Shown here in pieces: positions 17,919 through 36,906 of a DNA stretch of 64,000 nucleotides (position 1 is the first letter of the stretch; each line of letters begins with the position of its first letter). The notes beneath the pieces are model-generated. The model was not told the origin of the DNA. It worked only from the letters and a program-made list of their open reading frames with translations, and searched no databases. The DNA is taken from assembly GCA_963674945.2 (NCBI GenBank), contig CAXXWQ010000003.1, positions 2,080,001-2,144,000 of the forward strand, written 5' to 3'. This stretch comes from an uncultured Desulfosarcina sp. (lineage in GTDB: Bacteria; Desulfobacterota; Desulfobacteria; Desulfobacterales; Desulfosarcinaceae). The translations under genes and the position numbers were made by a program.

Positions 17919-17928
17919 TGTTTTCTCA

Positions 17929-18345: not shown

Positions 18346-18420
18346 GGTTCTCCGTTCTCCGTTCTTGGTTTTCGGTTCTCCGTTTTGAACTGTGAACTGT
18401 GAACCGAGAACCGTGAACTT
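18346..18420. repeat. Inverted heptamer arrays between exbB and exbD
   Basis: gttctccgttctccgttcttggttttcggttctcc / gaactgtgaactgtgaaccgagaaccgtgaac. Confidence 0.8.
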
Positions 18421-18423
18421 TTA

Positions 18424-20480: not shown

Positions 20481-21250
20481 GGAATCACCAGCTTTCCGAC
20501 GGGCAGGTCGAGCAGTTCTACCGGTTTTCGCTTGGCTGCCATTTCGATGGCAGAATGGATCGGTTGGTTGTGTTTCTGAGACAGAAGTTGCCACTCATTT
20601 TCTGCAACGTTGAAAAGGCCACACTTCTTTTGATCGAGGGACTGGAAGAATAGGTTGATTCGTCCAAGCCGAAAAATATCGACAAGTAGGGGCTGGCCGT
20701 CAATTTCGATGGTTTCCTGGTAGGTTTCGATGGTAAAACCGTACTCGGCTTCCACCAACAGCGCCTCCATGGCTTTTCGATACTTCTCGCTGATAGGGAC
20801 TTCGGGATCATCCGCCAGGCGGGTCAAATTTTCGACGCGCCGCTCTCTTTCTTTCATCAGAAAAGGAGGGCCTTCGATAATCAGGGCCTCGAGGCGATCG
20901 ATCAGTTCATGGACAAAGGGGCCGATCTGGTCGGAGATCTGTTCGATGTCCGCCAGTTGTTTCTCCTTGGTGGCGATGCGGGACCGGGTCGCGGCCACTT
21001 GCTCTTTGAGTTCATCGGTCTGTTGGGTGAGCCGTTTCTTTTCAGCTTCAAGCTCTTCATACCGGGCCATCAACTTCTCCTGGTCCAACCGCCATTGAAA
21101 TTCGGCCTCTTGGGTGGCCTGGCGGGTGTCGATGGCTTTTTGTACCGGCTTTTCGATGCGCCGTCGGGTTTCGCTGCCCGTAGCGGGAAGTACGGAAAAA
21201 CATAAAAGGAAAATGAGTATAGGAGAAAACCTGGACTTTTTTCTGTGCAT
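20477..21250 (-). CDS. DUF3450-family periplasmic protein
   Basis: Coiled coil, PF..ER..R, SEKYR..EA..EAEYG, RLGRI; usual first gene of TonB2-type clusters. Confidence 0.8.
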   Translation of the reverse strand: MHRKKSRFSPILIFLLCFSVLPATGSETRRRIEKPVQKAIDTRQATQEAEFQWRLDQEKLMARYEELEAEKKRLTQQTDELKEQVAATRSRIATKEKQLADIEQISDQIGPFVHELIDRLEALIIEGPPFLMKERERRVENLTRLADDPEVPISEKYRKAMEALLVEAEYGFTIETYQETIEIDGQPLLVDIFRLGRINLFFQSLDQKKCGLFNVAENEWQLLSQKHNQPIHSAIEMAAKRKPVELLDLPVGKLVIP

Positions 21251-21334
21251 GAACCGATCTCCTGTGAAGCGAGTATATATGAGAACCAAAATCCCGACAC
21301 AATTAGGGCGTTTGGGGAAAAGATACTCCTTGTC

Positions 21335-21380
21335 GAAAATAGAAAACCCGGACCGTCAAACGATCCGGGATATCCCTTTT
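21335..21380 (-). terminator. Leader terminator of riboswitch 2
   Basis: Minus strand CCCGGATCGTTTGACGGTCCGGG followed by TTTTCTATTTT. Confidence 0.65.
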
Positions 21381-21439
21381 TTACCCACAGATAGAGTACT
21401 GCAAACGATGCCGTCCACGCAATCGTTTCTTTTTTCATT

Positions 21440-21595
21440 CAGGCAGGTCTTCTGACTTTCGGATCATCCTGCACGTTGCGCCTTCCCAACCCGTTGGCCA
21501 GTGGCAAATGCAACGTTCGTCCCCGATCACAGCGGCGGGCCCATCCCCGATTTCCACGGGGTTCCCTATTCAGCTCAAAATGAGCACCTGAACTT
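21440..21595 (-). promoter_or_regulatory. Cobalamin riboswitch 2
   Basis: Minus strand GGTGC..AATAGGGAACCCCGTGGAAATCGGGGA..CCCGCCGCTGTG..GCCACTG..GGGAAGGC..AGTCAGAAGACCTGCC. Confidence 0.93.
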
Positions 21596-21835
21596 TCGCA
21601 GATTGAAATTTTTGCCAATATTAAAAAAAAAAACGAAATAGTCAAGTAAAAATAATCTCGATGATTACCAACGGCGCAGCCGGTGTCCGTTTCCTATATT
21701 CATCACCTTTTCGCTGCATTTTATCGTTTCCATCCGAGGTGTTGTGAGGAATTGAAAATCGATTTGTTATGATTTTTGACTCGAAAAAAAAACTTGACAA
21801 AAATCTTGTTACGGTATTTTCTTGCGCAAAATATT

Positions 21836-22030
21836 CTGGGTGCTTCCAAGATTGCCTGACCGTTGAGGCGAAGATATTTTTGGAGCGAAAATAGGGAACT
21901 CCGTGGAAATCGGAGACGGGCCCGCCGCTGTAAACGGGGACGAAAGCCGCATAACCACCACTGACGAGCAGCACTCGTCGGGAAGGTGTGGCCGGTAGGT
22001 TGATCCGTAAGTCAGAAGACCTGCCCAGAG
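21836..22030 (+). promoter_or_regulatory. Cobalamin riboswitch 3
   Basis: GGTGC..AATAGGGAACTCCGTGGAAATCGGAGACGGGCCCGCCGCTGTAA..CCACTG..GGGAAGG..AGTCAGAAGACCTGCC. Confidence 0.93.
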
Positions 22031-22093
22031 GAAAACGAGATCTGAACGCACGGATGGTTGTGCTCGACTCGACATAGATCACTGTGGAGAAAA

Positions 22094-22145
22094 AGGGACA
22101 TCCCTGGATCGTAAAGAAATAGACGGTTCAGGGATTTTGCTTTTT
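22094..22145 (+). terminator. Leader terminator of riboswitch 3
   Basis: ATCCCTGGATCGT..ACGGTTCAGGGAT followed by TTTGCTTTTT. Confidence 0.6.
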
Positions 22146-22160
22146 GGGGGAGAGAGAGGA

Positions 22161-24209
22161 ATGAAAATTCGGCTCGTGTCTTTGATTATGGTGTCCATTT
22201 TGATCGCCTTCGTTCAAAACGGGGGTGCTCAGGAGGAGCGAGACCCGGCGATGATGCTGGATGCCGTAGTGGTCACTTCGACAAGGGTCGATGATGATTT
22301 TCGAACCGGCGATGTGGACCAAGAGACCACGACGGTGATGACCACCACCATCGAACGAGCGCAATTCGAGGGAAAGATTGAAAACATCGCCGAGGTTATC
22401 GAGAAGGAGGTGGGGGTTCAGGTGCGACAGTCCGGTGGACTCGGCTCCTTCTCATCCGTATCCCTGCGCGGTTCATCCAGCGATCAGGTGATGGTTTTCA
22501 TGGACGGCATCCCATTAAACGACGCCTCCGGAGGCGGGGTAGACCTGAGTACTATCTCCCTGTCCGACGTGGCCGCCATCGAAATCTACCGGGGTGCCAC
22601 CCCCATCAATTTTGGCAGTTCCAGTATCGGCGGCGTCGTTAACATTCGTACCTTGCGATCGCAAAAGGGATTGAATACAAGCCTTTCTGGAGGATATGGC
22701 TATTTCAATACATGGAAAGCCAACGGATTTATCAACCACAAGCCCGGCCGATTCGATTATCTCGTTTCCGCCGATTACCTTTCCTCGGATAACGATTTCG
22801 ACATTTTAAACGACAATGGAACCGAGTGGAATCCGGACGACGATCGCTGGGAGAAACGAAACAATGCCCAGGTCGATCAGGCTAACGTGCTGGCAAAAGC
22901 CGGTTATGACCTTTCGGAGAATCTGCGGCTGGATCTGATGAATCAGACCTTCAGCAAGGAGCAGGGACTACCCAGCTGGAACAACAGCCCTTCTACCCAA
23001 TCCACGCTGGATACATTCCGAAACATCACCACATTGCGAATTACGGCAGACGATCTCACCGCTGCCCGTATCAACACGGGGACACAACTGGCGTATTCCA
23101 TCAAAGAAGAGGAGTACGACGACCGGGGTGGACACATCGGTCTGGCGGAACAGCACACCACTTATACCACCAACCGGTATAACCTCGATCTTTTTGCCCA
23201 GTGGACGGGAGCGTGGCAGGACCTCATCGGCACCATCAACCTGCTTCATGAAGACTACGAAGCAGAAGATCACCTGGAGAAATCGAATCCGGGGGATAGT
23301 CAAAGGGACTCTCTTTCCTTCGGCCTGCAGGACTGTTTTTTCTTCTTCAACGATTCAATGATTGTTACGCCGGCTGCCCGCTATACATGGATCGAAGATG
23401 AACTCGGTGCAGATGTCAGCACCTGGGGGACCACCCTGGATGAGCAAAGCCGGAGCGATACCAACTTCACGCCCCAGATCGGAGTCGTTTACGGTCCCTT
23501 TACGTGGCTCAAGTTCAAATCCAACCTGGCCAAGTATGTCCGTCAACCCTCCTTTTACGAATTGTTCGGGGATAGAGGGCTGTTTTTGGGGAATCCGGAC
23601 CTGAAAGAAGAAAAAGGGGTCAATTTCGATTTCGGTGCCGAGTGCCAGTGGCGCTCTCCTGAAAAATGGCTTCAACGCCTTCGTTTGGGTGCCGCTTATT
23701 TCTGTACCGATGCAGATGACCTGATCACTCGAAGTTATGATGCGCGTGGGGTAGGAAAATCCGTTAACATTTCCGGTGCCCTAATCCAAGGGATCGAACT
23801 CAATGGCACTGTAGAATTTCTGGATCACTTTCGTGCAGTTGCCAATTTTACCTACCAGGATCCCGAAAATCAAAGTGAAGTCAAGGCATTCGATGGAAAA
23901 CGACTCTCAGGTCGTTTCGAGACTGCCTTTCTCGGACGCCTGGAGGCATTCTACGCCGGCTTTCGCATTTACGGCGAGTATACCGGAGAGACCGGCATAT
24001 ACTACGATACGGCCAACCTCTTGCCTGCCCCCGACAAAGAAGAGATCAACGCCGGCATTTCCTATTCGGTGGGCACATGGCAGTTTCAATTGGAAGGCAG
24101 GAACCTGACCGATGAACTGTACGAGGATTTCAACGGTTATCCACTTCCCGGAAGATCTTTTTATGCATCCGTCAAATACAATTTTTCAACCCAAGAAGCG
24201 GAAAAGTGA
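22161..24209 (+). CDS. TonB-dependent receptor (BtuB-like)
   Basis: TonB box DAVVVTSTR, SLRGSSSDQVMVFMDGIPLN, IEIYRG, GNPDLKEE, NLTDELY..PGRSF; directly behind a B12 riboswitch. Confidence 0.92.
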   Translation: MKIRLVSLIMVSILIAFVQNGGAQEERDPAMMLDAVVVTSTRVDDDFRTGDVDQETTTVMTTTIERAQFEGKIENIAEVIEKEVGVQVRQSGGLGSFSSVSLRGSSSDQVMVFMDGIPLNDASGGGVDLSTISLSDVAAIEIYRGATPINFGSSSIGGVVNIRTLRSQKGLNTSLSGGYGYFNTWKANGFINHKPGRFDYLVSADYLSSDNDFDILNDNGTEWNPDDDRWEKRNNAQVDQANVLAKAGYDLSENLRLDLMNQTFSKEQGLPSWNNSPSTQSTLDTFRNITTLRITADDLTAARINTGTQLAYSIKEEEYDDRGGHIGLAEQHTTYTTNRYNLDLFAQWTGAWQDLIGTINLLHEDYEAEDHLEKSNPGDSQRDSLSFGLQDCFFFFNDSMIVTPAARYTWIEDELGADVSTWGTTLDEQSRSDTNFTPQIGVVYGPFTWLKFKSNLAKYVRQPSFYELFGDRGLFLGNPDLKEEKGVNFDFGAECQWRSPEKWLQRLRLGAAYFCTDADDLITRSYDARGVGKSVNISGALIQGIELNGTVEFLDHFRAVANFTYQDPENQSEVKAFDGKRLSGRFETAFLGRLEAFYAGFRIYGEYTGETGIYYDTANLLPAPDKEEINAGISYSVGTWQFQLEGRNLTDELYEDFNGYPLPGRSFYASVKYNFSTQEAEK

Positions 24210-25546
24210 AGGAGGGGATTATGTTTTCGAAATGGAATAGCGTTGCAGCGTCATGTGGGCGAGTTGGAATGTTGGTCTTGATGCTCAGTCTTTGTATTCC
24301 CGCATCGGCTTTGTCTCAAGTGGCAATCGTGGCCACGTCGGCTTCGGACTATACAAGTGGGGCACACGCCCTTGTAACCGTTGATCCTGTGGGTGGGCCG
24401 AGAACGATTCAGGACAATCTTCTTCCTACCATTTCAGACATCGGGGTAGCCGCCTATGAAAATTACTTCTATCGCATCGAACGCTTCCAGGCTGACAACA
24501 TCACCAAGTTTGATGTTGCCGCTCCGAGCACGCCAATTTATCAATACAGTGTTCTTGACAGCGGAGATACGGTTACCGCAAATCCCCATGCCATGATTTT
24601 TGTGAATGATCAGAAGGCATACGTGCTACGTTATGGCAAGACCAAGGCCTGGATTGTGAATCCCTCGGCAGCGTCTGCGGCAGACTTCAAGACCGGTGAA
24701 CTGGATCTGAGCGCCTATGCCGATTCGGACGGTATCCCGGAGATGGACAACGGAGTCATCGTCGATGGGGTATTGTACATTACCTTGCAGCGGTTGGATC
24801 GAAACGATAACTATGCGCCTTCCAACACCGCCTATGTAGCCTTGTTCGATACTGCCACCGATGCGGAGATCGATACCGGCATAACCAATACGGACGGAGT
24901 CATAGGGATTCCCCTGCCCGTGAAAAATACCAGTGCCATCCAGTATTTGGCGGAAAACGATACCATCTATGTGCAAGGAGTGGGCGATTACGGCAGCTCT
25001 TGGAGCAGCCGGGATCCAGAATATTCGGGGGGTATCGTAACCATCGATCCGGCCACATACGCCACCGCGCTTCTGGTGGATGACGGTGACGACACCGATC
25101 ACCCCTATGGAAATATATCTGGCATGATCATCGTGAGTGCCGACAAGGGGTATTTCATCGGGTATGACGGATGGGGAGACAATACCCTCTACGGCTTTTC
25201 GCCCACGACGGGAACCGTCGCCGGCAGCGTCAGCAGCGATCTGACCGGGAAAAACATCGCCGGCATGCAATCGGGTGCCTATCTGGATGAAAACGACATG
25301 CTCTGGGTGTGCAACCAGACCGATTCGCAGCTCATTATTCTCAACACTGCCGACGACACTATTGATGAGACCATCTCCACAAACCTCAACCCGCTGATGG
25401 TTGCATTTGCCAGCGAAAGCGATGATGACGACGAGGATGATGATGACAGTGATGATGGAAATAATAGCGGCAGCGTTGCTGACGACGATGATGACGGCAC
25501 CTGTTTCATCGATACTATGGGATTCTCTCCATTCATCAATGATTAA
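24206..25546 (+). CDS. Exported beta-propeller-like protein (putative BtuG-like corrinoid capture protein) with Asp-rich linker and CFI-type C-terminal motif
   Basis: Signal peptide, beta-rich repeats (NPHAMIFVNDQKAYV), poly-Asp tract then GTCFIDT; overlaps the receptor stop. Function inferred from context. Confidence 0.6.
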   Translation: MKEGIMFSKWNSVAASCGRVGMLVLMLSLCIPASALSQVAIVATSASDYTSGAHALVTVDPVGGPRTIQDNLLPTISDIGVAAYENYFYRIERFQADNITKFDVAAPSTPIYQYSVLDSGDTVTANPHAMIFVNDQKAYVLRYGKTKAWIVNPSAASAADFKTGELDLSAYADSDGIPEMDNGVIVDGVLYITLQRLDRNDNYAPSNTAYVALFDTATDAEIDTGITNTDGVIGIPLPVKNTSAIQYLAENDTIYVQGVGDYGSSWSSRDPEYSGGIVTIDPATYATALLVDDGDDTDHPYGNISGMIIVSADKGYFIGYDGWGDNTLYGFSPTTGTVAGSVSSDLTGKNIAGMQSGAYLDENDMLWVCNQTDSQLIILNTADDTIDETISTNLNPLMVAFASESDDDDEDDDDSDDGNNSGSVADDDDDGTCFIDTMGFSPFIND

Positions 25547-25634: not shown

Positions 25635-25880
25635 TATTCGGTGCTCGTTTGAGCTTAAAAGGGAACTCCGTTCGAATCGGAGACAGGCCCGCTGCTGTGA
25701 TCGGGGACGAAATCCGCAACTTGCCACTGTCAACGTAGTAAAGGTTGCCTCTACAGAAATAGGAAAATTGGTTCGAGATCGAGACAAAGATATCGGGCAA
25801 ATTGGCCATTTCTGTACGGGCATCTGACGGGAAGGCGCAGAGAGTAGGTAGAACCGAAAGTCAGAAGACCTGCCGAATAT
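25635..25880 (+). promoter_or_regulatory. Cobalamin riboswitch 4 (long peripheral insertion)
   Basis: GGTGC..AAAAGGGAACTCCGTTCGAATCGGAG..GCTGTG..GCCACTG..(~100 nt)..GGGAAGGC..AGTCAGAAGACCTGCC. Confidence 0.9.
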
Positions 25881-25936
25881 GAAGTACGTCTCCTTCGTGG
25901 ACGGAAGGTGAGTATACAAAGATTTTGAGGATAATA

Positions 25937-25984
25937 AGGGATATCCCCGGATCGAGCGAAAGATCGGTCCGGGGATTTTTTTTG
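25937..25984 (+). terminator. Leader terminator of riboswitch 4
   Basis: ATCCCCGGATCGAGCGAAAGATCGGTCCGGGGAT followed by a T run. Confidence 0.75.
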
Positions 25985-26050
25985 TGGATACGACAAAAAC
26001 CCGAAAAAAGATGTTCTTCGAGTACATTGACTATGATCTCTTGCTCACAA

Positions 26051-29000
26051 ATGATGATGAATCTGCAAATGCCGTCCCGTGACCGGTTTATCCCGAACCG
26101 TTTGTTTATCCGGATCAGACGATGGGCTCGGTGCCTTTTCTTCTCGTCCATCGTCCTTCTTCTGTTTTCTTACAATCCATCTTTCGCCCTGGCTGGGAAG
26201 GTGAGCATCCTGGAGATCGACATCAACAGCTACCAGGTTGCCAAGGCCATGGGACGACTGGATCTGCCGAAAGCCATCGAAACCCGATTTTTCACCATTT
26301 CCGACCTGACGGACAATCCATCGGCGAAGGCGTTTCTTGCCGACTCGAAGATCATCTTCGTTAATGTGATGCATCCGGAACTGGCCAATTATCCGGTGGA
26401 TGCGGGACTCATGGATGGACGGTACGTATACGCCCTCAATCCGGCGGGTGATCCCGAGGCCCTCGGGAAAAAGGGGTACCGGTTCGATGACGAGGTCATG
26501 GCCTATTATCGTCACCGCAGTGTCACCAACATGGTAAACATGGTGCGCATGGTCGTGGCCCGGCATATGGATCCTTCGCTACCCTATGGCTCTTTGGAAA
26601 AGACACCCGAGGTGTGCATTCACCACCCGGATGCAAAACAACTTTTCACCCGACCGTCCGACTATTGGCAGTGGAACGCCAAACGCGACGGGTTTGATCC
26701 GGATCAACCGAGGGTGGGCATCCTTTGTTATTCCGCGATGCTCAAGGAGGGGCAGGTGGAGGCGGCCGATGATTTGATCCGCCAACTGGAGGCGGCGGGT
26801 TTCGCCGTGCTGCCCTGTTTCGGATCGGCCCGGAAGATCATATCCACGTTTCTTCGCCCGGAGAACGGCCGGTCTCCGGTTGACATGGTCCTGGCCTTTT
26901 CCCTGAAATTCTCTTCGGCCATCGACGATGAGCTTCGAAAATCCCTGGTTGAACTGGATGCGCCGGTCTTCGACGTGATCCGTCCCTTCGGGGAAACCAT
27001 CGATGAGTGGAAAAAGAGCGAGGTGGGCCTGGGGCCCATGGAGACGGTCTGGGCCGTTGCCACGCCCGAGTTTTCCGGTTCCATCGAACCGAGCGTGATC
27101 ATGGGGAAGAAGCGGGTTGTGGATCCTGTTACCGGCCGGCCATTGTTCATCTACGAGACGATTCAGGAGACGGTGGGTTTTCTCATTCCCCGCCTGAAAA
27201 AGTGGGCGCAGCTGCAGAAAATGGCCAATGGGGACAAGAAGGTCGCCATCTTCTACTATAATCACAGCCAGGGAAAACAGAACATCGCCGCCGCCTACCT
27301 CAACGTATTTCGAAGCCTGGAGTCGATTTTAGGCCGCCTCGTTGCCGAAGGGTACACGGTGGACACGACCGTTCGTCTCACCGAAGAACGGCTCCAGAAA
27401 ATGGTTCTGGCAGGGGGACGCAACATCGGTTCATGGGCGCCCGGAGAACTGGATGCCATGATGGCCGAAGGAGAGGTGGAGACCGTCGACCTTGCCACCT
27501 ACAAGGCCTGGTTCGACCAGCTTCCCGAGGCGTTCACCAAACCGGTCCTGGCCCAATGGGGGCCGCCGGAAGATTGCGCCATCATGACCCGGGATAATCG
27601 GATGGTGTTTCCCATGGTCAAACTGGGAAGTATTGTGATCTTGCCTGAGCCGGCCCGGGGCTGGACCGATGATCCCATGAAACTATACCATGACAAGACC
27701 CTTTTCCCCCATCATCAATATATCGCGGCCTATCTCTGGCTTTCCCGGGTCTTTCATGCCGATGCCATGATTCATCTGGGCACCCACGCCACATATGAAT
27801 GGCTGCCGGGCAAACAGGTGGGGCTGGCGCCATGGGATCCGCCCGAAATCATGACCGGTGCCATCCCCAACATCTATCCCTACATCGTGGACGACGTGGG
27901 GGAAGGAATTCAGGCCAAACGAAGGGGTCGTGGAGTGGTCATCGACCATCTGACACCCCCCATGAAAAAAGCGGATCTGTACCACGAATACGCCAAGCTG
28001 CATGACCTGTATCACAAATACGAAATCTCTGTTGCCAACGGCAGCGAAACGGCATCCGCCTATATGGAGAAGGTACAGGCCCTCGTTCGGGAGATGGGAA
28101 TCGCCAACGACCTGGGACTCGACCGGTTGGACGAGGAAGCCATGGAGAAGGTTCATCTCTATCTTCACGAAATCGACAACAATTCCCTGCCATACGGTCT
28201 TCACACCTTCGGCAGGGCCTATGATGAAGCGGCGGCATCGGAGACCGTGGACCTGATCATCGAGCAGAATCCCGATGCGGACCCCGAAAATGTAAAAGCG
28301 GATCTTTCCCGCAGCGCAAAAGACGAGATGGACAACCTGATCCGAGGCTTGAACGGACGGTATGTGCCGGCAGGGGAGGGCAATGATCCGCTGCGGAATC
28401 TGGCGGCCCTTCCCACGGGGAGGAATTTTTACGGGTTCTCTCCTGCCAAGGTTCCTTCCAAGGCAGCCTGGACCATCGGAAAACGGGCCGCCGAACAGAT
28501 GATCCAGGAGAAGTTGGCCAAGACGGGCGACTATCCCCAAAAGGTCGGCATCGTCCTGTGGGCCACGGAAACCACCCGAAACGAGGGCGTCAACGAGAGC
28601 ACGATCCTGTACCTGATGGGTATCGAGCCGGTATGGGATGCCACGGAGAGGGTAACGGGCAGCCGGGTGATTCCCGGTGCCGTTCTCCGCCGGCCCCGCA
28701 TCGACGTGCTGATCAATCCTTCCGGACTGTACCGGGACATGTTTCCCGACAAGCTGGTTTTTCTGGACGAGGCGGTCGAAAAGGCCATGGCCCAGACCGA
28801 CATCGAAAACCTCCTGGCCAAGCACAATGCCGCCATCGAAAAACGGCTCATGGATGCCGGCATGGATGAAGCCGAGGCCAAATCCCAGAGCCGGTTTCGC
28901 ATCTTCACCGAACAGGTCGGTTCCTACGGCAACGGGGTCGCGGAAATGGCCAGTGCCTCCGGGCTATGGGAGGAAGACGATGCCGTCAGCGACGTCTATC

Positions 29001-30037
29001 TCAACCGGGTGCAGTTTGCCGTCGGACAGGGCAAATGGGGGGTGCCGGTGCGCGCCGCCTTCACCGAGAATCTTCGCGACGTGGACGTGGCGGTCCATTC
29101 CAGGTCCACCAACGTCATCGGTATCATCGATACGGATGATTTCTTCATGTACCTGGGGGGAATGTCCCTGGCTGTCAAGAATCTTTCGGGAAAGGCCCCG
29201 GACACCATGGTGACCCTGCACCGTCGAAAGGATGAAATCCGGGTGGAGGATGTGGAAAAGACCATCGGCCGTGAGATGCGAACCCGCTATCTCAATCCCC
29301 AGTGGATCGAGGGGATGAAAAAGGACAACTACGGCGGCGCCCGACAGATGGCCGATTTTGCCGAGAACCTGTGGGGGTGGCAGGTGACGGTCCCCACAGC
29401 CGTGGATGCGGACAAGTGGGAACAGGTCTACGAGGTCTACGTGAAGGACAAGTATGACCAGGATCTGGCCGCCTTCTTCGACAAACACAACCCATGGGCC
29501 TACCAGTCCATGACCGCCCGCATGCTGGAGACGGTGAGAAAAGGGTACTGGCAGGCCGACGATGAAATTCGACAGAAACTTGCCGTGGAGTATGCCGTGA
29601 ACGTGGTGGAAAAGGGGGTGGCATGCTGCGACCACACCTGCAACAACCCCATGCTCAACCAGATGGTGGTCAACATCATCTCATTGCCCGGCGTCATGTC
29701 TCCGGAAATGGTGGAGAAGTTCAAACTGGCCATCGAGAAGATGGCGGCCCGGTCCCTGGAAGACCAGGCCAAAATGCGCCGGGAACTTTTAGAAAAATTG
29801 AAAGCGGCCCCCGGCCAAAAGGAATCGGCTAACGATCCGCCCAAGGCCGAAGATGCCGATCGCGCTTCACAGGATGTTGGTGCCGCTGACGCCGAACAGG
29901 TCGAAGGATACAAGATGGAGGATATCGACACCAATGATACCTCGACCGATCTTACATCATCGGGGGTTCAATGGATTGCCTCCCTGTTCGTGATTTTCGT
30001 TATCGGGGCGTTTGTGTGGGGAACCAAACGAAAATAA
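26051..30037 (+). CDS. Exported, C-terminally anchored CobN/Mg-chelatase H-family protein (HmuS/BtuS-like)
   Basis: HLGTHATYEWLPGK, YPYIVDDVGEGIQAKRRG, LPTGRNFY, NPQWIEGM; signal-like N-terminus ..SFALA, CCDHTCNN, C-terminal TM + KRK; start uncertain. Confidence 0.88.
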   Translation: MMMNLQMPSRDRFIPNRLFIRIRRWARCLFFSSIVLLLFSYNPSFALAGKVSILEIDINSYQVAKAMGRLDLPKAIETRFFTISDLTDNPSAKAFLADSKIIFVNVMHPELANYPVDAGLMDGRYVYALNPAGDPEALGKKGYRFDDEVMAYYRHRSVTNMVNMVRMVVARHMDPSLPYGSLEKTPEVCIHHPDAKQLFTRPSDYWQWNAKRDGFDPDQPRVGILCYSAMLKEGQVEAADDLIRQLEAAGFAVLPCFGSARKIISTFLRPENGRSPVDMVLAFSLKFSSAIDDELRKSLVELDAPVFDVIRPFGETIDEWKKSEVGLGPMETVWAVATPEFSGSIEPSVIMGKKRVVDPVTGRPLFIYETIQETVGFLIPRLKKWAQLQKMANGDKKVAIFYYNHSQGKQNIAAAYLNVFRSLESILGRLVAEGYTVDTTVRLTEERLQKMVLAGGRNIGSWAPGELDAMMAEGEVETVDLATYKAWFDQLPEAFTKPVLAQWGPPEDCAIMTRDNRMVFPMVKLGSIVILPEPARGWTDDPMKLYHDKTLFPHHQYIAAYLWLSRVFHADAMIHLGTHATYEWLPGKQVGLAPWDPPEIMTGAIPNIYPYIVDDVGEGIQAKRRGRGVVIDHLTPPMKKADLYHEYAKLHDLYHKYEISVANGSETASAYMEKVQALVREMGIANDLGLDRLDEEAMEKVHLYLHEIDNNSLPYGLHTFGRAYDEAAASETVDLIIEQNPDADPENVKADLSRSAKDEMDNLIRGLNGRYVPAGEGNDPLRNLAALPTGRNFYGFSPAKVPSKAAWTIGKRAAEQMIQEKLAKTGDYPQKVGIVLWATETTRNEGVNESTILYLMGIEPVWDATERVTGSRVIPGAVLRRPRIDVLINPSGLYRDMFPDKLVFLDEAVEKAMAQTDIENLLAKHNAAIEKRLMDAGMDEAEAKSQSRFRIFTEQVGSYGNGVAEMASASGLWEEDDAVSDVYLNRVQFAVGQGKWGVPVRAAFTENLRDVDVAVHSRSTNVIGIIDTDDFFMYLGGMSLAVKNLSGKAPDTMVTLHRRKDEIRVEDVEKTIGREMRTRYLNPQWIEGMKKDNYGGARQMADFAENLWGWQVTVPTAVDADKWEQVYEVYVKDKYDQDLAAFFDKHNPWAYQSMTARMLETVRKGYWQADDEIRQKLAVEYAVNVVEKGVACCDHTCNNPMLNQMVVNIISLPGVMSPEMVEKFKLAIEKMAARSLEDQAKMRRELLEKLKAAPGQKESANDPPKAEDADRASQDVGAADAEQVEGYKMEDIDTNDTSTDLTSSGVQWIASLFVIFVIGAFVWGTKRK

Positions 30038-30039
30038 AA

Positions 30040-30123
30040 TTCACAGTTCGAAACCGAGAACGGAGAACAGTGAACCGAGAACGGAGAACAGTGAACCGAG
30101 AACGGAGAACCGAGAACCGAGAA
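30040..30123. repeat. Heptamer array with 21-bp higher-order unit (AACCGAGAACGGAGAACAGTG)
   Basis: Visible tandem copies between the CobN-like and DUF2162 genes. Confidence 0.85.
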
Positions 30124-30132
30124 AGGTGAGCC

Positions 30133-30882
30133 ATGTTACTTAAGAGTCTCATATTCGGTATTGCCTTCAGCATGGGCATTTTTGCCATAAAAAGCGGCGT
30201 GGGGGCAGCCTATGTGGTGGGGCGGCATAGAAAAAAAACGAAGATCGCCTTAGACATTTTCCTTTTTGTACTCGTTTACGGGATCGTATTTGCAGCAGCA
30301 TCAATCGTGCTCTCCCGAGTGGATCCGGTGGCCCACTTGGCCGCTTTTCAGGGATTTTTTCGTTCGGGAACCCTCGTTCATCTGCTTTTGGCCGCCTTGA
30401 TGGCCGCCTGGGGGGTGGCGCTGCTTCGACGGAACCCGAAAACGGCATCGAAAAGTCGGGGTTGGCTAATGTTGGTGGTGCCCTGCCCGCTATGTGTGGC
30501 GGTCATCCTTTTGTCAATGGGGTTTTTACTGGCAGGCTTTCCCGATCATCCTCGAATGGTCGTGTCGCTGTTCTTCATTGCCTTCGTGATGATCGCCCTG
30601 GCCGCTCTCGGTGTGGCGCGCCGGTATGGTCGCAACCACCCGGAAATCTCTCCCGAATCCTTTCTGGGAAGTGCCATGTTGCTCATTGCCGCCTATTTTC
30701 TCGTATCCATGACCGTCATGCCACTGTTTGGCGAACTGAATGAGGTGTATCGCCTGGCCCGTTATCGCGGACCGAATGCGGTGCAATCCTACGTTCCCAT
30801 GATTTCCCTTGCCATTTGCATCGTCACGGCTTTTTCCGTTGGTTTTGTGGCGTCCGATAGAAAAATAAGGAGAACGATATGA
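30133..30882 (+). CDS. DUF2162-family membrane protein (HmuT-like)
   Basis: GIFAIKSGVG, PCPLC motif, multiple TM helices; follows the CobN-like gene. Confidence 0.75.
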   Translation: MLLKSLIFGIAFSMGIFAIKSGVGAAYVVGRHRKKTKIALDIFLFVLVYGIVFAAASIVLSRVDPVAHLAAFQGFFRSGTLVHLLLAALMAAWGVALLRRNPKTASKSRGWLMLVVPCPLCVAVILLSMGFLLAGFPDHPRMVVSLFFIAFVMIALAALGVARRYGRNHPEISPESFLGSAMLLIAAYFLVSMTVMPLFGELNEVYRLARYRGPNAVQSYVPMISLAICIVTAFSVGFVASDRKIRRTI

Positions 30883-31520
30883 TCGATCCGGGTGCACTGC
30901 TCAAGACCATTATTTACCTCATCTCCTCTTCACTGCTCTATCCGGTTTTATTGCTGCTCGTATTGTTGGCCCTGTTTATCGTGGTGTATGCGGGGTCCTT
31001 CTTTGCCGAATGGCTGGGACGCATTCGGCTTTCTCCCTGTGACCCGACAAAACTGCCGGCCATCTTGAAAAAGGGGCAGCCGGCGCCGGTGGTCTCCCAT
31101 CGTGTCAATGGTTATGTCCAGGATTTGCATAAGATGCGCGGTGCGAACCAGACAGACGAGGTCATCGTCGAGAACCTGCTACAGGAGAGGTCTTTGTCCC
31201 TATGGAAGTCCATGGACCGGCTGCGCATCCTGGTCCGCGTCGCGCCCGCCCTGGGGCTGATCGGCACCCTGATTCCCATGGGCACGGGGTTGGCCGCCTT
31301 GGGCCAGGGGGACATGACGAGACTGACCACGGATCTGGTCATCGCCTTTACCACCACAGTGGTGGGACTGGCCATCGGCACCCTGGCGTTTTTCTTCTAC
31401 ACCATCAGACGGCGCTGGATCGAGCAGGATGTGAAAAATATGGAACTGGCCACGGAGGTATTCATGGATGACAACGAACGGAGCGTATATGAAATACGTA
31501 ACGCAGCGTCGAATGCGTAA
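30879..31520 (+). CDS. MotA/TolQ/ExbB-family protein (HmuU-like)
   Basis: SSSLLYPV, APALGLIGTLIPMG, AFTTTVVGL, RRRW..D. Confidence 0.85.
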   Translation: MIDPGALLKTIIYLISSSLLYPVLLLLVLLALFIVVYAGSFFAEWLGRIRLSPCDPTKLPAILKKGQPAPVVSHRVNGYVQDLHKMRGANQTDEVIVENLLQERSLSLWKSMDRLRILVRVAPALGLIGTLIPMGTGLAALGQGDMTRLTTDLVIAFTTTVVGLAIGTLAFFFYTIRRRWIEQDVKNMELATEVFMDDNERSVYEIRNAASNA

Positions 31521-31863
31521 GGCCGGCCGTGGTTTTGGAGACACGGCGTTCCGGGACGATGATCCCATGACCGGCGTCGCCAATCTCTTCGATATCGGAC
31601 TGGTCTTCATCGTGGGGCTGTTGTTGACGCTGTTTTCCGCCTATCGACTCCAGGATCTGTTCGACGAGAATTCAAATATGACCATCATGAAACAAAAGGA
31701 AAGCGGCGAGATGGAAATCATCACCAAGAAGGGAAAGAAAATCAAGGCCACCCGGGTGACACGGGAAACCGCCCAGGGCGAGGGCAGTCGGTTGGGCGTG
31801 GCGTATCGGTTGGCGGATGGGACCATGGTATATGTCCCAGATGAATCAATGACGTCTCCGTAA
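31489..31863 (+). CDS. DUF2149-family protein (HmuV-like)
   Basis: DDPMTGVANLFD, MEIITKKG, G.RLGVAYRLADGTMVYVP. Confidence 0.85.
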   Translation: MKYVTQRRMRKAGRGFGDTAFRDDDPMTGVANLFDIGLVFIVGLLLTLFSAYRLQDLFDENSNMTIMKQKESGEMEIITKKGKKIKATRVTRETAQGEGSRLGVAYRLADGTMVYVPDESMTSP

Positions 31864-31977
31864 AAAGCTCGATATCGGCGTTACGCGTATCCCTCGTCAC
31901 TGCGGAGTATTTTCTGTATACAGCCTCATTCCTCGGGAACCGCAAGCCTTGATCTCGAGCTTTTTACGAAGCCGTTC
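31850..31977. mobile_element. ~130 bp MITE/REP-like element, copy 1
   Basis: Terminal inverted repeats GACGTCTCCGTAAAAAGCTC / GAGCTTTTTACGAAGCCGTT; homologous to 57230-57360 in the opposite orientation. Confidence 0.75.
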
Positions 31978-32097
31978 AGAACCTGCTTTTTCTGCAAATT
32001 GATATAAATTTTAATAGTAGGCGTGAGGGAAGATGGGCTTCACTCGAACCCTTGAATCATTGAACCCTCATTTCACCTTGAACCGGAGAACTTCAAA

Positions 32098-34104
32098 ATG
32101 AAACCTGTCTTGCGACGAATCGGTTGGCTGCAGGTGATTGGCCTCTGGCTTTTCCTCAGCGTTTCCGCCTGGGCCACGCCCATGGATATTACCGACGATG
32201 CCGGCAACACCCTGCATTTTTACAAGCCACCGAAGAGGGTGGTCAGCCTGGTGCCATCGGCGACGGAGATCATTTTCGCCATCGATGCCCAGGACGCATT
32301 GGTGGGCATCACACATCACAGCAGCGCCCTGCGCGGTGCCGCCAAAAAGACCATCGTGGGTGGGTACACTTCTCCCTCCATACCCCATATCATGGCCCTG
32401 GAACCCGATCTGGTGATCGCCTCCGATTTTCAGGATGAGATGATTGGCCATATTCGTGAAACGGTGCCTGTCATGGTGATCAACATGAACCGGATGGACG
32501 ATGCATTTCGGCATATGGAATTGATGGGAAGACTGTTGGGCCATGGAAAAGCGGCATCGGCCCTTGCGGAACAAAATAGAATACAACTGGAGTTGATCGC
32601 CCGCAAAGTGGCCACAATACCTCCGGAACGGAGAAAACGGGTGATGCGCATCATGGGGCTGAAGCATCCCATGACGCCGGGCTCCGATTCTTTCCAAAAC
32701 GAAATGATCCGGGCCGCCGGCGCCATTGCCCCCGATCTCGGTATGCCGGGCGCCGTAATCCCGATGACGAAAGAACAATGGCGCGACTTCAATCCCCAGT
32801 TGCTCTACGGATGCGGCGGCATCGACAGGGCCAGGGACGCCTTTTTCTTAAAGGAGGGTTGGAACGCGGTGGATGCCGTCACAAATCAAAATATCCGGGA
32901 TTTCCCCTGTGCGTTGACCTGCAGGGCCGGTGCCCATTTGGGGTATTTTGTCAGCTGGCTATCTTCGGTGATCTATCCGGAGGAATTCGCCAAACCCGAA
33001 AATGAAATGCTGCCGAGAAAGGTGGTCGACACCCGGCCGGTGCCCGTCGATTTGGACTATGTGGCCGATGCCGCCGTCGCCACGAGTATTATTCAGGATT
33101 TTGCCCACAAGAGCCTGATCGTGGATTTTACATCACCTCGGACCATCGTTTCCACCCTGGAAGGACAGCGCAGCGGCATTCAAACCGTGGGTAACCACTA
33201 CTCCTCGCCGCCCTGCTGGGCCCTGATGGGGATGTCCGGCTTGGATCCCCTATACCGGTTGATCTATCCGGTGATCGGAAAAGAAGCATCCACCACGGCC
33301 TTTCTCTTCACCGGTGCCAACATGGACCATCTTGCGGTAAAGAAAGAGAAATTCAAGGAGATGGTCGTCTATGGTCTGGTCACCGCCGGAGTCAGGGGCA
33401 ATGCCGTGAGAATGGGGACGGATGTAGGCGCATACTACGAGCCAGGCACCATCAACATGATTTTTCTCACCAACATGCGCCTTACCCCACGTGCCTTGAC
33501 CCGGGCCATCATATCGGCCACCGAGGGCAAGACGGCAGCCCTTCAGGACCTGGATATTCGCAGCAGTTACCTCTCCCTGACCGCAGCCGCCACCGGCACC
33601 GGTACCGACAACATCATCGTGGTGCAAGGGGACGGGCCGGTCGTGGAAAATGCCGGTGGACATTCGAAGCTGGGGGAACTGATCGCCCGCTGTGCCTATG
33701 CCGGTGTCCGGGAGGCGATCGCCCGGCAAAACGGCATCGTGGGGCCACGAAACATCTTTGAACGGCTCCGGGACCGTCACACCAGTGTCTATCAATTGGC
33801 CAGTGAAAGCCAATGCGAGTGCATGGCGAATAAAGGAAAATTGGCCGGCCGGGTGGAAACGCTGCTTCTCGATCCTGCCTATGCCGGGTTTCTGGAGGCC
33901 GCCATGGACATAAGCGATGGTACCAACAGGAAGATGGTCCAAGATCTTTCCGGATTCGAGAACTGGTGCCTGGACGTGGCCGGCAGGATCGCCGGGCGGG
34001 AGGTGGATCGACTGGATATTCATGTCGCGGACGAAAAATTCCCGCGACCGCTGGCCATGGCCTTCGATGCACTGTTTACAGGTGTTTCCAAACGTAACGA
34101 ATAG
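32098..34104 (+). CDS. cbiZ: BtuF-like periplasmic binding domain fused to adenosylcobinamide amidohydrolase CbiZ domain
   Basis: Signal peptide; DDAG..PPKRVVSLVPSATEI binding domain; CbiZ motifs TAGVRGNA, GTIN, TEGKTAALQDL, ATGTGTD, GGHSKLGELI. Confidence 0.82.
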   Translation: MKPVLRRIGWLQVIGLWLFLSVSAWATPMDITDDAGNTLHFYKPPKRVVSLVPSATEIIFAIDAQDALVGITHHSSALRGAAKKTIVGGYTSPSIPHIMALEPDLVIASDFQDEMIGHIRETVPVMVINMNRMDDAFRHMELMGRLLGHGKAASALAEQNRIQLELIARKVATIPPERRKRVMRIMGLKHPMTPGSDSFQNEMIRAAGAIAPDLGMPGAVIPMTKEQWRDFNPQLLYGCGGIDRARDAFFLKEGWNAVDAVTNQNIRDFPCALTCRAGAHLGYFVSWLSSVIYPEEFAKPENEMLPRKVVDTRPVPVDLDYVADAAVATSIIQDFAHKSLIVDFTSPRTIVSTLEGQRSGIQTVGNHYSSPPCWALMGMSGLDPLYRLIYPVIGKEASTTAFLFTGANMDHLAVKKEKFKEMVVYGLVTAGVRGNAVRMGTDVGAYYEPGTINMIFLTNMRLTPRALTRAIISATEGKTAALQDLDIRSSYLSLTAAATGTGTDNIIVVQGDGPVVENAGGHSKLGELIARCAYAGVREAIARQNGIVGPRNIFERLRDRHTSVYQLASESQCECMANKGKLAGRVETLLLDPAYAGFLEAAMDISDGTNRKMVQDLSGFENWCLDVAGRIAGREVDRLDIHVADEKFPRPLAMAFDALFTGVSKRNE

Positions 34105-34121
34105 AGAGTGCCGATTCAGAA

Positions 34122-36122
34122 ATGACCAATTTGCCTATTTCTGGACAGATCATATGTAAGGAACGCTATATGTTCAGCAATCATAGATGTAAATTTCAAC
34201 GTCTAAATCGCCATTTTCATCCTCGCCGGGGTCGATCCAATTGGATCGCTTTTCTGGCATTTATTGGATTCTTGCTGATGATTCCGCCCGTCCCATGGGC
34301 ACAGGAAAAACACGGTCACGGCCGGTCGGCCCCCCAACCCATGGCCATGGACGACGTCGTCGTTACCGCAGAACGGATCGATGCCTATGTGAACAATAAT
34401 CCTGCACAGGTGGTGATCCTGGGACTGGAAGAGATCCGGGAGCGCAACCTGCTCAGTGTCGAGGAGGCGCTGAACACCATGCCCGGTGTGGATGTGAAGA
34501 AGAGTTCTGGCATCGGATCCCGCATCTCCATCCGCGGTTCGGGAAAGTCCGGCGGGGTATTGGTGCTGATCAACGGCAGACCGTTAAACAGCAGCCAGTA
34601 CGGTGGGGCCGATCTTTCCACAATTCCCATCGATATCGTCAAATCCATCACCGTGTTCAAACCTCCGGTTCCCGTATGGCTCGGGGCTGGTGCCAGTGAA
34701 GGTGCCATCGTTATCACCACCCGCGACATGGCGGACGGGAAAAAAGAGGAGAAAACGCATGTGACCCGGTTTCGGGGTGCCGGCGGTTCCTATGGCCTTG
34801 CCGAGGCTACGGCAAGCCAGCGTGTCAGCCTTGCATCGGGAGGCATCATGGCCACGGCAACGGGCACGCACAGGGACGGCAAACGGACCAACAGCGACAG
34901 GGACAGCGGGAACTTCTCCCTGCACTGGGACCGGGAACTGACCGGGACCCATCGGGTGGAGGTGGACGGGCGCTATTACCTGTCGGAGTACGGCAGTGCC
35001 GGTCCTTTAGACAACCCAACCCCGGATGCCCGGCAGCGGTATGAGAAGGGTGCATTGGACGGCCGACTCAGCGGAACCATCGGTTCCACGGGCGACTATA
35101 CGTTGAACCTGTACGGTGATATGGTCGATCTGACGGATGAAAGCCAGTCGGGTTTCGTGTCCACTCTGGACAACGATAAGTATGGGCTCAAGGGGGAGAA
35201 CAACTGGACCGACGAAGCGGGGAAATGGGGACTGCAGATGAGCGGTATCGTGGAACGTGACGATGTGGATCACACCCTTTCGGGCACCCACCACCGAACC
35301 ACAGCCGGAATGGGCGCCCAGGCGGACAGAAGCTGGCAGACCCTCACGGCCACATTGGGGGTGCGGGGAGACTACACCAGCGATTTCGACATCAACCCCG
35401 GTCTTTCCAGTGGCGTCCGCTATCGGCTGACCGATAACTGGTCCTTATTGGCCAACGCCGGATACATGGTGAAGATTCCCACATTCGGACAGCTCTACCA
35501 GCCCAGCCACGGCAGCATCGATCAGGTGCGCGGGAATCCGGATCTGGACGAAGAGAAGATCTGGTCCTATGATGCCGCCGCGGAGTATCGCTGGAAAAAG
35601 ATCCACCACTTTCAATTCTCTGTTTTCCGGTCCGATACCCGTGATCCCATCGTCTATCGGCGGGGCGCGGACCTGATCTTCCAGCCGGAAAACGCCGACC
35701 GAAGCTGGCGCCACGGCATCGAAGCCACGTGGAAATACCGGTTTGCCGCTGGGGTCACCGCAGATGCCAATGCCATCGCACAGGATTCGAAGATCGATGA
35801 GACCGGCAACGAACTGCCCTACACGCCGCGAGTGAAGCTCACGCTCACGCTGCTCTACACGATTGAGGGACCCGGCACCCACCTGGAAACGACGGCGCGG
35901 TATCGGAGCCGGCAGTACTCGGAGGCGGAAAACCGGGAATCGGAGCGACTCGACGAATACATTACCTTAGACTTCAAAGCCATACAACCCTTTACGATAA
36001 AATCAATGGCCGCCGAATTTTTCATCTCGTTGGAAAATCTCTTCGATACCGATTTTGAAATTCATTATGGATATCCCGACGACGGGTTTCGGTTCGTTTC
36101 GGGATTGAATTTGACATTCTAA
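34122..36122 (+). CDS. TonB-dependent receptor
   Basis: DDVVVTAER, SIRGS, LINGRPLN, GNPDLDEE, ENLFD, terminal F; start uncertain. Confidence 0.9.
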   Translation: MTNLPISGQIICKERYMFSNHRCKFQRLNRHFHPRRGRSNWIAFLAFIGFLLMIPPVPWAQEKHGHGRSAPQPMAMDDVVVTAERIDAYVNNNPAQVVILGLEEIRERNLLSVEEALNTMPGVDVKKSSGIGSRISIRGSGKSGGVLVLINGRPLNSSQYGGADLSTIPIDIVKSITVFKPPVPVWLGAGASEGAIVITTRDMADGKKEEKTHVTRFRGAGGSYGLAEATASQRVSLASGGIMATATGTHRDGKRTNSDRDSGNFSLHWDRELTGTHRVEVDGRYYLSEYGSAGPLDNPTPDARQRYEKGALDGRLSGTIGSTGDYTLNLYGDMVDLTDESQSGFVSTLDNDKYGLKGENNWTDEAGKWGLQMSGIVERDDVDHTLSGTHHRTTAGMGAQADRSWQTLTATLGVRGDYTSDFDINPGLSSGVRYRLTDNWSLLANAGYMVKIPTFGQLYQPSHGSIDQVRGNPDLDEEKIWSYDAAAEYRWKKIHHFQFSVFRSDTRDPIVYRRGADLIFQPENADRSWRHGIEATWKYRFAAGVTADANAIAQDSKIDETGNELPYTPRVKLTLTLLYTIEGPGTHLETTARYRSRQYSEAENRESERLDEYITLDFKAIQPFTIKSMAAEFFISLENLFDTDFEIHYGYPDDGFRFVSGLNLTF

Positions 36123-36132
36123 AGGAAAACTC

Positions 36133-36906
36133 ATGATCGAAAAGACACCCATCGTGCTGGCCGCCTTCGGCACGACGTCGGCGGCAATGGACACCTATAG
36201 CGATATCGACAGGATCGTAAAAGCGACCTTTACCGGACATCCGGTGAGATGGGCCTATACTTCCCGTATGGTCCGGTCCCACATGAACACCAAGCGTCGG
36301 GCAAGCATGAAAAATCCTGAACAAGTGCTGGCCGATCTATACGATCAGGGGCATCGGTGGGCCGTGGTACAAAGCATGCACCTGATATGGGGACACGAAT
36401 TTTACCGGCTGGTGGAAGAGGTCCGGGAAAGTGGTGTCCGCATCAGCATGGGCCTGCCGCTGCTGACCGATCCCAAGGATTACAATGACACTGCCATGGC
36501 CCTTCTTAGCTCGAATGGCAAGGGTAACAATCATGCGACGGTACTGGTGGGGCACGGAACCGATCATCCGGCCTGGACCGCCTATCCGGCTTTGGAACGT
36601 GTCCTGTGTACCTGCGGAAACAACGTTCATGTGGCCACCATAGAGGGGGAGAGCGACATGGCGGAAACGGTGGATGCCGTTGTTCGGTCGGGCGCTCGAG
36701 CCGTCAGACTCGTTCCCCTGATGCTGGTTGCGGGCGTTCATGTGAGAGAAGATATCGCCGGTGAAGAGGATTCCTGGCGAACGGCGTTTCAGGCGGCCGG
36801 CCTGTCCGTTTCGGTCGATGATCGGGGAATGGGAAAACATCCCGCCATCGTCGATATTTTCATTCGACATATCCGGGAGGCGTTGGACGTGATACCCACC
36901 GGATGA
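36133..36906 (+). CDS. cbiK: Sirohydrochlorin cobaltochelatase (CbiK family)
   Basis: LAAFGTT, WAYTSRMV, QSMHLI.G.E, GHGTDHP, PLMLVAGVHVREDIAG; no signal peptide. Confidence 0.9.
   Translation: MIEKTPIVLAAFGTTSAAMDTYSDIDRIVKATFTGHPVRWAYTSRMVRSHMNTKRRASMKNPEQVLADLYDQGHRWAVVQSMHLIWGHEFYRLVEEVRESGVRISMGLPLLTDPKDYNDTAMALLSSNGKGNNHATVLVGHGTDHPAWTAYPALERVLCTCGNNVHVATIEGESDMAETVDAVVRSGARAVRLVPLMLVAGVHVREDIAGEEDSWRTAFQAAGLSVSVDDRGMGKHPAIVDIFIRHIREALDVIPTG

Follow-up and report, generated by a model that had tools for sequence, protein, structure and literature searches.

A 64,000-nucleotide stretch of DNA from an uncultured Desulfosarcina sp. (contig CAXXWQ010000003.1; hereafter the window) carries, behind a cobalamin riboswitch, a gene module built around an exported relative of the cobaltochelatase subunit CobN. 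The CobN-like gene is followed by genes for DUF2162, an ExbB-like protein and DUF2149, an exported BtuF-CbiZ fusion, a TonB-dependent receptor and the cobaltochelatase CbiK. Judged from sequence comparisons, the module is real and conserved, and represents a BtuS/Hmu-type system whose predicted chemistry is potentially unprecedented. On the same grounds, its central protein is not an HmuS, the heme dechelatase of Bacteroidota, though it is built like one. The function that we favour, while holding it to be evenly balanced between right and wrong, is a periplasmic release of cobalt from imported, trimmed corrinoids or related cobalt tetrapyrroles, the metal then being imported and re-used by CbiK. 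We favour cobalt release because of the distribution of the module among genomes, the dechelating activity of the sister family HmuS and the periplasmic location predicted for the enzyme. The parts of the module listed in the original prediction, an earlier reading of the letters of this DNA, are all found on the plus strand where they had been placed (Table 1).

Predicted export, fold and active site of the CobN-like protein

The open frame of the CobN-like protein spans 25925-30037, with ATG 26069 as the likely start and alternative starts at 26033-26057. As had been proposed, the protein is predicted to be exported and anchored in the membrane: hydropathy gives a signal-like start and one C-terminal transmembrane (TM) helix, and among 120 close homologues the N-terminus is hydrophobic in 109 and the C-terminus in 115. 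The accompanying claim, that it sits away from ChlI and ChlD, agrees with the predicted export, but the genes of both do lie in the window (minus strand, 1050-4210), as members of the operon that encodes another CobN, a cytoplasmic one (6141-9950). Ahead of the anchor, the linker varies, save for the island VEGYKME, which 91 of 94 full-length homologues keep; HmuS has the look-alike GTVLKK. Fusions of CobN-like proteins were also observed, one with a TonB-dependent receptor (P0089, 1926 aa) and one with the C-terminal part of DUF2162 (L074:7570-11751).

Kinship with the hmuSTUV genes, previously suggested by gene order, is corroborated by phylogeny, by structure and by the partners at the T, U and V positions. 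In a tree of 37 sequences, from which BchH and archaeal sequences were left out, the exported proteins form one group apart from cytoplasmic CobN (SH-aLRT 100), and HmuS (3 rows) is sister to the module clade (30 rows, SH-aLRT 94). The AlphaFold model of the window protein (pLDDT 91.8) finds HmuS 9d26 as its best Foldseek match (TMq 0.86), followed by CobN 7c6o (0.75) and ChlH (0.70). The nearest named homologues are from Desulfosarcina, at 73-74% identity, and the NCBIfam CobN equivalog cut-offs are missed (961 versus 1619 and 661 versus 822).

HmuS of Bacteroides thetaiotaomicron was shown in 2025 to be a heme dechelatase (PDB 9d26; PMC12583661, available part), and the dechelatase of Porphyromonas gingivalis is treated in PMC13227078 (available part). 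In the former paper, Nath et al. take as the defining features of HmuS a Met-rich insertion in domain IV, Met79 and His254 as the site-1 heme ligands and the sequence LSLDHxxEFMGG. The cobalt ligands of CobN, H554, E593 and D1100, correspond in the window protein to H573, E612 and D1023, which are kept in 98/98, 98/98 and 97/98 exported non-HmuS homologues, respectively; His573 is at the same time the counterpart of the catalytic His538 of HmuS (98/98). His254 (HGR motif), on the other hand, occurs in none of these 98 homologues versus all three HmuS sequences, while Met79 aligns with M101 and a Met is kept there in 85 of the 98. Where HmuS has LSLDHxxEFMGG, the window protein has IDTDDFFMYLGG. 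Thus the position of HmuS His1209 is D1024 here, and Asp in 95 of 98 homologues, His in none. Elsewhere, HmuS carries His at this position, as do 11 of 15 BchH-type sequences (Arg in the other 4), a type assigned from motif and genome context. Asp is found in the two solved CobNs and in those cytoplasmic CobN-type sequences that have an SDD or CTD motif; two divergent cytoplasmic types differ. Finally, the domain IV span is 55 aa with a single Met in the window protein (median 55 aa, at most 6 Met, in the 71 of 98 homologues that are measurable) versus 205 aa with 8 Met in the one HmuS measurable by pattern, and the Met-rich insert is absent from the module clade.

Because Asp, and not His, occupies the His1209 position, we infer a corrin-type cavity, a statement about substrate class that is silent on the direction of the reaction. 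A corrin-type active site, in line with the corrinoid processing proposed earlier, is likewise supported by the retention of the CobN cobalt ligands and of the DxDD motif.

Conservation of the module and its distribution among genomes

The survey covered 401 genomes of the phylum, 41 of which gave a DUF2149 match above the cut-off. Regions were taken around 40 DUF2149 matches in 38 genomes (the two weakest, G169 and G191, being left out), together with 15 regions from close relatives and 58 GTDB loci. The resulting 98 DUF2149 clusters include four pairs on the same contig and were counted as 94. A CobN-like gene is present in 87 of these, a receptor in 64, CbiZ in 40 and CbiK in 26; among the seven clusters with no CobN-like gene, six are cut by a contig or region edge and one belongs to a genome that has the gene on another contig. 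Gene order varies, T-U-V mostly staying together. CbiZ and CbiK, which had been counted as members of the module, are present in the window but prove to be accessories, and not fixed parts, across the 94 loci.

Control by a B12 riboswitch had also been proposed, and the element turned out to be a conserved feature. Using a profile built from 20 riboswitches, which gave no matches on reversed sequence, a same-strand riboswitch was found at the 5′ end of 55 of 73 assessable modules versus none of three Bacteroidota HmuS loci; this control is small, since the Bacteroidota sample is dominated by Mg-chelatase-bearing genomes and yielded only these three HmuS-type loci. In three of the 18 modules lacking the element (L053, L066 and L071) a riboswitch lies a little further upstream; an Rfam recheck of 12 of the 18, L038 among them, detected none upstream.

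The distribution among genomes bears on the product. Genomes with CbiC or CbiD were scored as ring builders and those with CobS and neither of the two as salvagers, CbiB being unscored in the salvager set. DUF2149, used as the marker, occurs in 39 of 200 ring builders, in 1 of 111 CobS-only genomes and in 1 of 90 genomes with neither; moreover, the single salvager match is a 45-residue fragment at a contig edge and the single match in the last group has stop codons. The Fisher p of 2e-7 is overstated, since related genomes do not count as independent and many are incomplete; the carriers belong to about 29 families. A finished corrinoid or cobyric acid would be most useful to salvagers, while cobalt or an early ring intermediate would be useful only to builders. 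Cobalt is therefore favoured over a finished corrinoid as the product, the marker being nearly confined to ring builders, and the same test (39/200 versus 1/111) favours the earlier notion that the cobalt is re-used by CbiK.

CbiD alone was rejected as a marker of ring builders, since three CbiD-negative carriers have a CbiX-CbiC cluster. Small genomes (G244, at L186:11359-18774, and also G272 and G296) have a CbiX-CbiC fusion in a corrin-ring cluster in which CbiD was not matched, along with another CobN-family gene that extends over two adjacent frames; in the L186 cluster, a 408-aa open reading frame (ORF) with a TP-methylase domain may replace CbiD.

Several relatives carry variants of the module. 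Genome G445 has two copies (L038 and L040), one behind two riboswitches beside cbi genes, the other riboswitch-free, downstream of feoB and with the motif DSDDFYG. Same-genus relatives (G004, G007 and G009) have 14-19 CobN-family matched stretches (about 7-10 genes) and 15-32 cobalamin riboswitches. A deep-branching exported paralogue of about 1390 aa with a longer domain IV is found together with T/U/V in L078, L080 and L081 (the last with a DUF4198 gene); it has no upstream riboswitch in both assessable loci and may serve another metal such as nickel. The aerobic Bacteroidota Dyadobacter (L139, L143) have an Asp-type clade member with neither riboswitch nor inner Cys/His and with a divergent T, probably through transfer or re-purposing. 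Finally, a sub-clade (L129, L134, L135 and L120) has tandem copies, with up to three CobN-like genes running, and no riboswitch was detected in it.

Partner proteins, proposed reaction and alternatives

The motif CCDHTC of the CobN-like protein, singled out in the original prediction, is present, but only C1187 and H1189 are specific to the clade. The outer pair, C1186 and C1191, also occurs in B. thetaiotaomicron HmuS (SCSGFVC), and two HmuS-type proteins lack it; for both reasons, the reading of CCDHTC as a special catalytic motif was rejected in part. In DUF2162, H83 and P-C-P-x-C (117-121) are invariant in 44 sequences. C1187/H1189 and the CxxC of DUF2162 are both kept in 60 of 62 scored CobN/DUF2162 pairs, and both are absent from three separate branches inside the clade (L053, L106 and L139/L143), from L058 and from the three HmuS loci. 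This co-variation suggests that metal or electrons are handed over between the Cys/His of the CobN-like protein and the CxxC of DUF2162. DUF2162 is a candidate cobalt carrier or electron conduit. For the fold of DUF2162, Foldseek gave no match at E 0.001 or better, no PDB sequence match was obtained, and an Atlas search returned only DUF2162 and DUF2149 clusters. The best structure comparison (VIA Z 7.9) is to an MFS half; a CcdA-like fold, despite the invariant CxxC, has no structural support (CcdA at rank 37, E 1.3).

As for the putative motor, Thr130 of the ExbB-like protein is invariant in 28 sequences, and we take it to be the equivalent of the ExbB channel residue T148. The NLxD motif of DUF2149, with its membrane Asp, is invariant (41/41), and hhalign detected no homology between DUF2149 and the ExbD of the window (0.5%, one ExbD compared). 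A complex prediction of two DUF2149 periplasmic domains with the CobN-like linker scored 0.27 versus a mark of 0.32; its controls were not folded and it was not used. The BtuF-CbiZ protein has BtuF structures among its structural matches. A signal-like N-terminus is found in 41 of 48 related CbiZ ORFs, a BtuF fusion in 39 and the ATGTGTD motif in 46, and in one locus (L131, a single metagenome-assembled genome) BtuF-CbiZ runs in frame into a CobN-like protein whose own signal peptide is gone.

These elements can be assembled into a tentative sequence of events. At low B12, the observed riboswitch would let transcription proceed past the terminator, and TonB-dependent receptors, presumably powered by the divergent TonB/ExbB/ExbD set, would import cobalt tetrapyrroles. 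The BtuF domain would hold the corrinoid while CbiZ removes the aminopropanol and the nucleotide loop, a trimming step suggested by the family and by one gene fusion, leaving a loop-free corrin like the ligands of CobN. By analogy with HmuS and heme, the CobN-like protein would then run the chelatase reaction backwards at His573/Glu612/Asp1023. Freed Co(II), or the electrons that loosen it, would pass between C1187/H1189 and H83/CxxC of DUF2162, as the co-variation suggests, and CbiK would insert the cobalt into sirohydrochlorin, feeding de novo synthesis, for which the genome has the pathway genes. The ExbB-like/DUF2149 pair might act as the force generator by taking hold of the VEGYKME strand, which lies in the tail extending domain VI, a step to which we give somewhat less than even weight; a motor pulling on this tail is plausible by analogy, though unproven, and the rest of the mechanism does not depend on it. 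The complete scheme, a proton-gradient corrin decobaltase in which CbiZ trims cobamides, the ExbB-like/DUF2149 motor tugs on the enzyme's tethered tail to drive the chelatase "pliers" with no ATP and a Cys/His relay passes the metal to DUF2162 for import, is in our judgement rather doubtful.

Cobalt release also draws support from the conserved riboswitch, the retained CobN cobalt ligands, the L131 fusion, the Cys/His co-variation and a riboswitch-linked NicO-family metal transporter in the same island. A number of observations weigh against it. Cobalt is held very tightly by corrins. Tight holding of metals is also stated for Ni-corrins in the available part of PMC7693184, and an enzyme taking cobalt out of a corrin did not turn up in our literature searches. 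NADH is enough for purified HmuS to turn over heme, a motor being dispensable, and the authors of that work assign HmuU/V to receptor energising (PMC12583661, available part). The CbiZ product, cobyric acid, would be usable whole in this host, where CbiB, CobU and CobS are present, and stripping it looks wasteful. CbiZ and CbiK are missing from most loci, and about one quarter of the assessable modules have no detectable riboswitch; since the riboswitch-free copy L038 lies downstream of feoB, the clade is not cobalt-only. The co-variation has exceptions, namely L039, where the CxxC is lost but CCDHTC remains, L103, which retains the CxxC but no longer has the His, and L074, where DUF2162 is truncated and fused. 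The unscored CbiB of the salvager set somewhat weakens the case against a cobyric-acid product. Finally, the Asp signature also matches an inserting enzyme.

Indeed, a periplasmic chelatase could insert cobalt into metal-free corrinoids (hydrogenobalamin, hydrogenobyric acid) acquired from cobalt-starved neighbours and trimmed by CbiZ, with the ExbB-like/DUF2149 motor standing in for the CobST ATPase. The active site is CobN-like at every residue checked, insertion is the reaction that requires a motor, the tail is an extension of domain VI, which serves as the CobT-binding handle, and Chromatium is known to make metal-free hydrogenobalamin as a natural product, according to the available part of PMC7693184. 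However, the resulting cobyric acid would best serve CobS-only salvagers, among which the marker is found in 1 of 111 genomes (CbiB unscored); a B12 shortage in a ring builder more probably reflects a lack of cobalt than a lack of ring; and a cytoplasmic CobN-ChlI-ChlD with an importer of its own, as well as a cytoplasmic CbiZ, is already present in the island. We therefore regard insertion as unlikely. It is quite unlikely, in our view, that the protein is a non-catalytic catcher or sorter, which would bind corrinoids or early cobalt-precorrins and pass them to DUF2162 or the ABC importer with the metal unchanged: uptake of early ring intermediates would likewise be useful only to ring builders, and HmuT/U/V are proposed as inner-membrane transporters in reviews (PMC12094164, available part), yet the catalytic metal ligands are invariant across 98 sequences, and a 1300-residue enzyme fold would be a costly carrier in an operon that also encodes BtuF-type proteins. 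An HmuS-like iron dechelatase for heme or siroheme, for which the riboswitch would be merely positional or the freed sirohydrochlorin would go to CbiK, is very improbable: despite the sister position of HmuS, the kept Met79 equivalent (85/98), the one riboswitch-free copy near feoB and the discussion of Methanosarcina BtuS as iron-linked (PMC10846266, available part), His254, His1209 and the Met-rich insert are absent, in most relatives the riboswitch lies directly at the module 5′ end, the window has no E. coli-type Fur box at up to 3 mismatches (a weak test), and CbiZ would be left with no role.

Gene map, surroundings and known systems

Table 1. Features of the module and of neighbouring units, in window positions.
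Feature	Position	Strand	Evidence or remark
Cobalamin riboswitch, long insertion in one loop	25622..25891	+	Rfam RF00174, whole model, 105.4 bits, E 2e-25, gathering score 31.5
Intrinsic-terminator-like hairpin, likely riboswitch expression platform	25943..25986	+	13 pairs and T run
Predicted exported, C-anchored CobN/HmuS(BtuS)-superfamily protein, 1322 aa	26069..30037	+	PF02514, 1062 bits; hydropathy
Predicted signal peptide, residues 1-42	26069..26194	+	Hydrophobic stretch 23-41, end SFA-LA
HLGTHA (His573) to Glu612	27773..27904	+	CobN Co ligands H554/E593, HmuS His538
D1021-T-D1023-D1024, CobN-type DxDD motif	29129..29140	+	SLDH (His1209) in HmuS
CCDHTC, from residue 1186	29624..29641	+	
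VEGYKME, conserved island before anchor	29900..29920	+	Alignment of homologues
C-terminal TM anchor (one helix, 1298-1316), then basic tail	29960..30016	+	Hydropathy
DUF2162, HmuT position, about 7 TM helices	30133..30882	+	PF09930, 114.8 bits
MotA/TolQ/ExbB-family protein, HmuU position	30879..31520	+	PF01618, 50.7 bits
DUF2149, HmuV position, one TM helix, basic C-terminal domain	31489..31863	+	PF09919, 110.9 bits
Exported BtuF-like domain fused to CbiZ amidohydrolase, one ORF	32098..34104	+	PF01497, 61 bits; PF01955, 163 bits
TonB-dependent receptor	34122..36122	+	Best NCBIfam model the B12 receptor TIGR01779, 130.6, far under cut-off 599.7
CbiK sirohydrochlorin cobaltochelatase, cytoplasmic type (signal-like start absent)	36133..36906	+	PF06180, 182 bits
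Upstream unit: cobalamin riboswitch, TonB-dependent receptor, secreted 446-aa no-family protein	21826..25546	+	
Divergent unit: cobalamin riboswitch, DUF3450, two ExbB, ExbD, TonB, TPR	15850..21606	-	
Separate riboswitch unit: CcsA/ResB, ABC importer, cytoplasmic CobN, receptor, ChlD, ChlI	1050..15735	-	

The hairpin behind the module riboswitch is the strongest terminator-like one of the region and forms in both the minimum free energy and the centroid structures. A promoter scan of the region remained at chance level (15 versus 11.7 +/- 3.3). The search of the window for an E. coli-type Fur box, a weak test using the consensus with up to 3 mismatches, gave 0 matches. The space that separates the CobN-like gene from DUF2162 (30040-30125) is occupied by short tandem repeats (GAACCGAGAACGGAGAACAGT-like units), and 234 bp lie between DUF2149 and BtuF-CbiZ.

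The module lies in a B12 island: the window contains 7 cobalamin riboswitches and the genome 12, 10 of them within about 61 kb. The genome encodes CbiC, CbiD, CbiG, a CobQ-type protein, CbiB, CobU and CobS, i.e., ring-building and late B12 genes, and it holds a single such module; its only further CobN, a cytoplasmic one, lies beside ChlI/ChlD and behind another riboswitch. The divergent unit of Table 1 is a complete conventional motor for receptors. In the upstream unit, the secreted 446-aa protein (24206-25546) has no Pfam or NCBIfam match, an acidic C-terminal tail and the end GTCFID; standing beside a riboswitch-linked receptor, it is a candidate surface corrinoid-binding protein. The family search of the window gave no HmuY match, and this no-family secreted protein lies upstream.

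The operon of the cytoplasmic CobN runs on to L192:7838-9965, including a cytoplasmic CbiZ, and the host also has CbiK/CbiD; this CbiZ and a riboswitch-linked DUF1007/NicO pair (NicO-family metal transporter) lie directly upstream of the window. The motif of the cytoplasmic CobN is SCTDYY, not DSDDYY, and several genomes of the Bacteroidota sample have a CobN of this kind. This operon possibly serves ATP-driven cobalt insertion into salvaged metal-free corrins. Three further cobalamin riboswitches were located at 39306-39488, 49307-49490 and 52522-52719 (minus); the element at 52522-52719 lies in front of a BtuFCD-like ABC importer, and the other two are near-duplicates. A CoA-transferase is seemingly split over the overlapping frames 40300-40761 and 40749-42425 (window 40300-42425), possibly by a frameshift.

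Cobalt is generally regarded as locked in corrins, and B12 sharing is modelled as uptake of the intact ring followed by remodelling. If cobalt release is correct, about one fifth of the ring builders of the phylum (39 of the 200 sampled) would mine cobalt from the cobamides of others, and the carriers would be a sink for shared B12 in sediments as well as a route of cobalt recycling. Should the proton-gradient decobaltase be real, it would be the first enzyme taking cobalt from a corrin and the first ion-motor class I chelatase, and these anaerobes would destroy shared B12; periplasmic ATP-free cobalt insertion, the alternative, would be new too. Residues open to testing can be named: D1024 for the substrate class, C1187/H1189 with the CxxC of DUF2162, the VEGYKME tail and the Asp of DUF2149.

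Full-text searches, judged by the titles and abstracts returned and leaving subscription papers mostly uncovered, found no literature on an exported CobN linked to a B12 riboswitch and CbiZ, and btuS, cobN and cbiZ do not occur in the available part of PMC545781. According to the accessible text of PMC12583661, most other CobN-like clusters of the superfamily could not be annotated by the HmuS authors, and the roles of HmuT/U/V are called unclear in reviews. BtuS was proposed in 2003 (Rodionov et al., as cited in PMC6460266) as a third CobN type for metalloporphyrin salvage; PMC6460266 itself contrasts BtuS with B12-regulated CobN and ties it to heme. Structural work on CobNST identified H554/E593/D1100 as the cobalt ligands and domain VI as the main CobT-binding "handle" (bioRxiv 10.64898/2026.07.21.739949, available part).

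Among known systems, the module resembles hmuYRSTUV of Bacteroidota in its predicted exported, anchored class I chelatase fold, its T/U/V partners, its TonB-dependent receptor and the absence of an ATPase partner. Unlike hmuYRSTUV, it has a B12 riboswitch in place of iron control, a CobN-type DxDD, a CxxC-bearing T and an exported BtuF-CbiZ and CbiK alongside, and its carriers are corrin-ring builders. Of the BtuS family (BtuS1 and BtuS2 of Bacteroides fragilis, BtuS of Methanosarcina), B. fragilis BtuS1 shares with it the neighbouring cbiK, which by locus tags (BF638R_2502) lies inside the btuS1 operon (2501-2512; PMC6460266, available part). The cobalt ligands, the DxDD and the six-domain fold are those of the CobN of CobNST (Brucella 9uk9, Mycobacterium tuberculosis 7c6o), whereas the signal peptide, the anchor, the C-terminal extension, the absence of an AAA+ partner from the operon and a host that uses the early-insertion pathway (CbiK, CbiD) set it apart. 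Its CbiZ domain is like that of corrinoid remodelling (PF01955, ATGTGTD), but is exported, fused to BtuF and in one case also to the CobN-like protein. Finally, the PF01618 subunit with its invariant Thr and the single-pass partner with an intramembrane Asp recall the ExbB-ExbD, MotAB and TolQR motors, from which the module differs in that DUF2149 has no detectable homology to ExbD and TonB is absent from the module.

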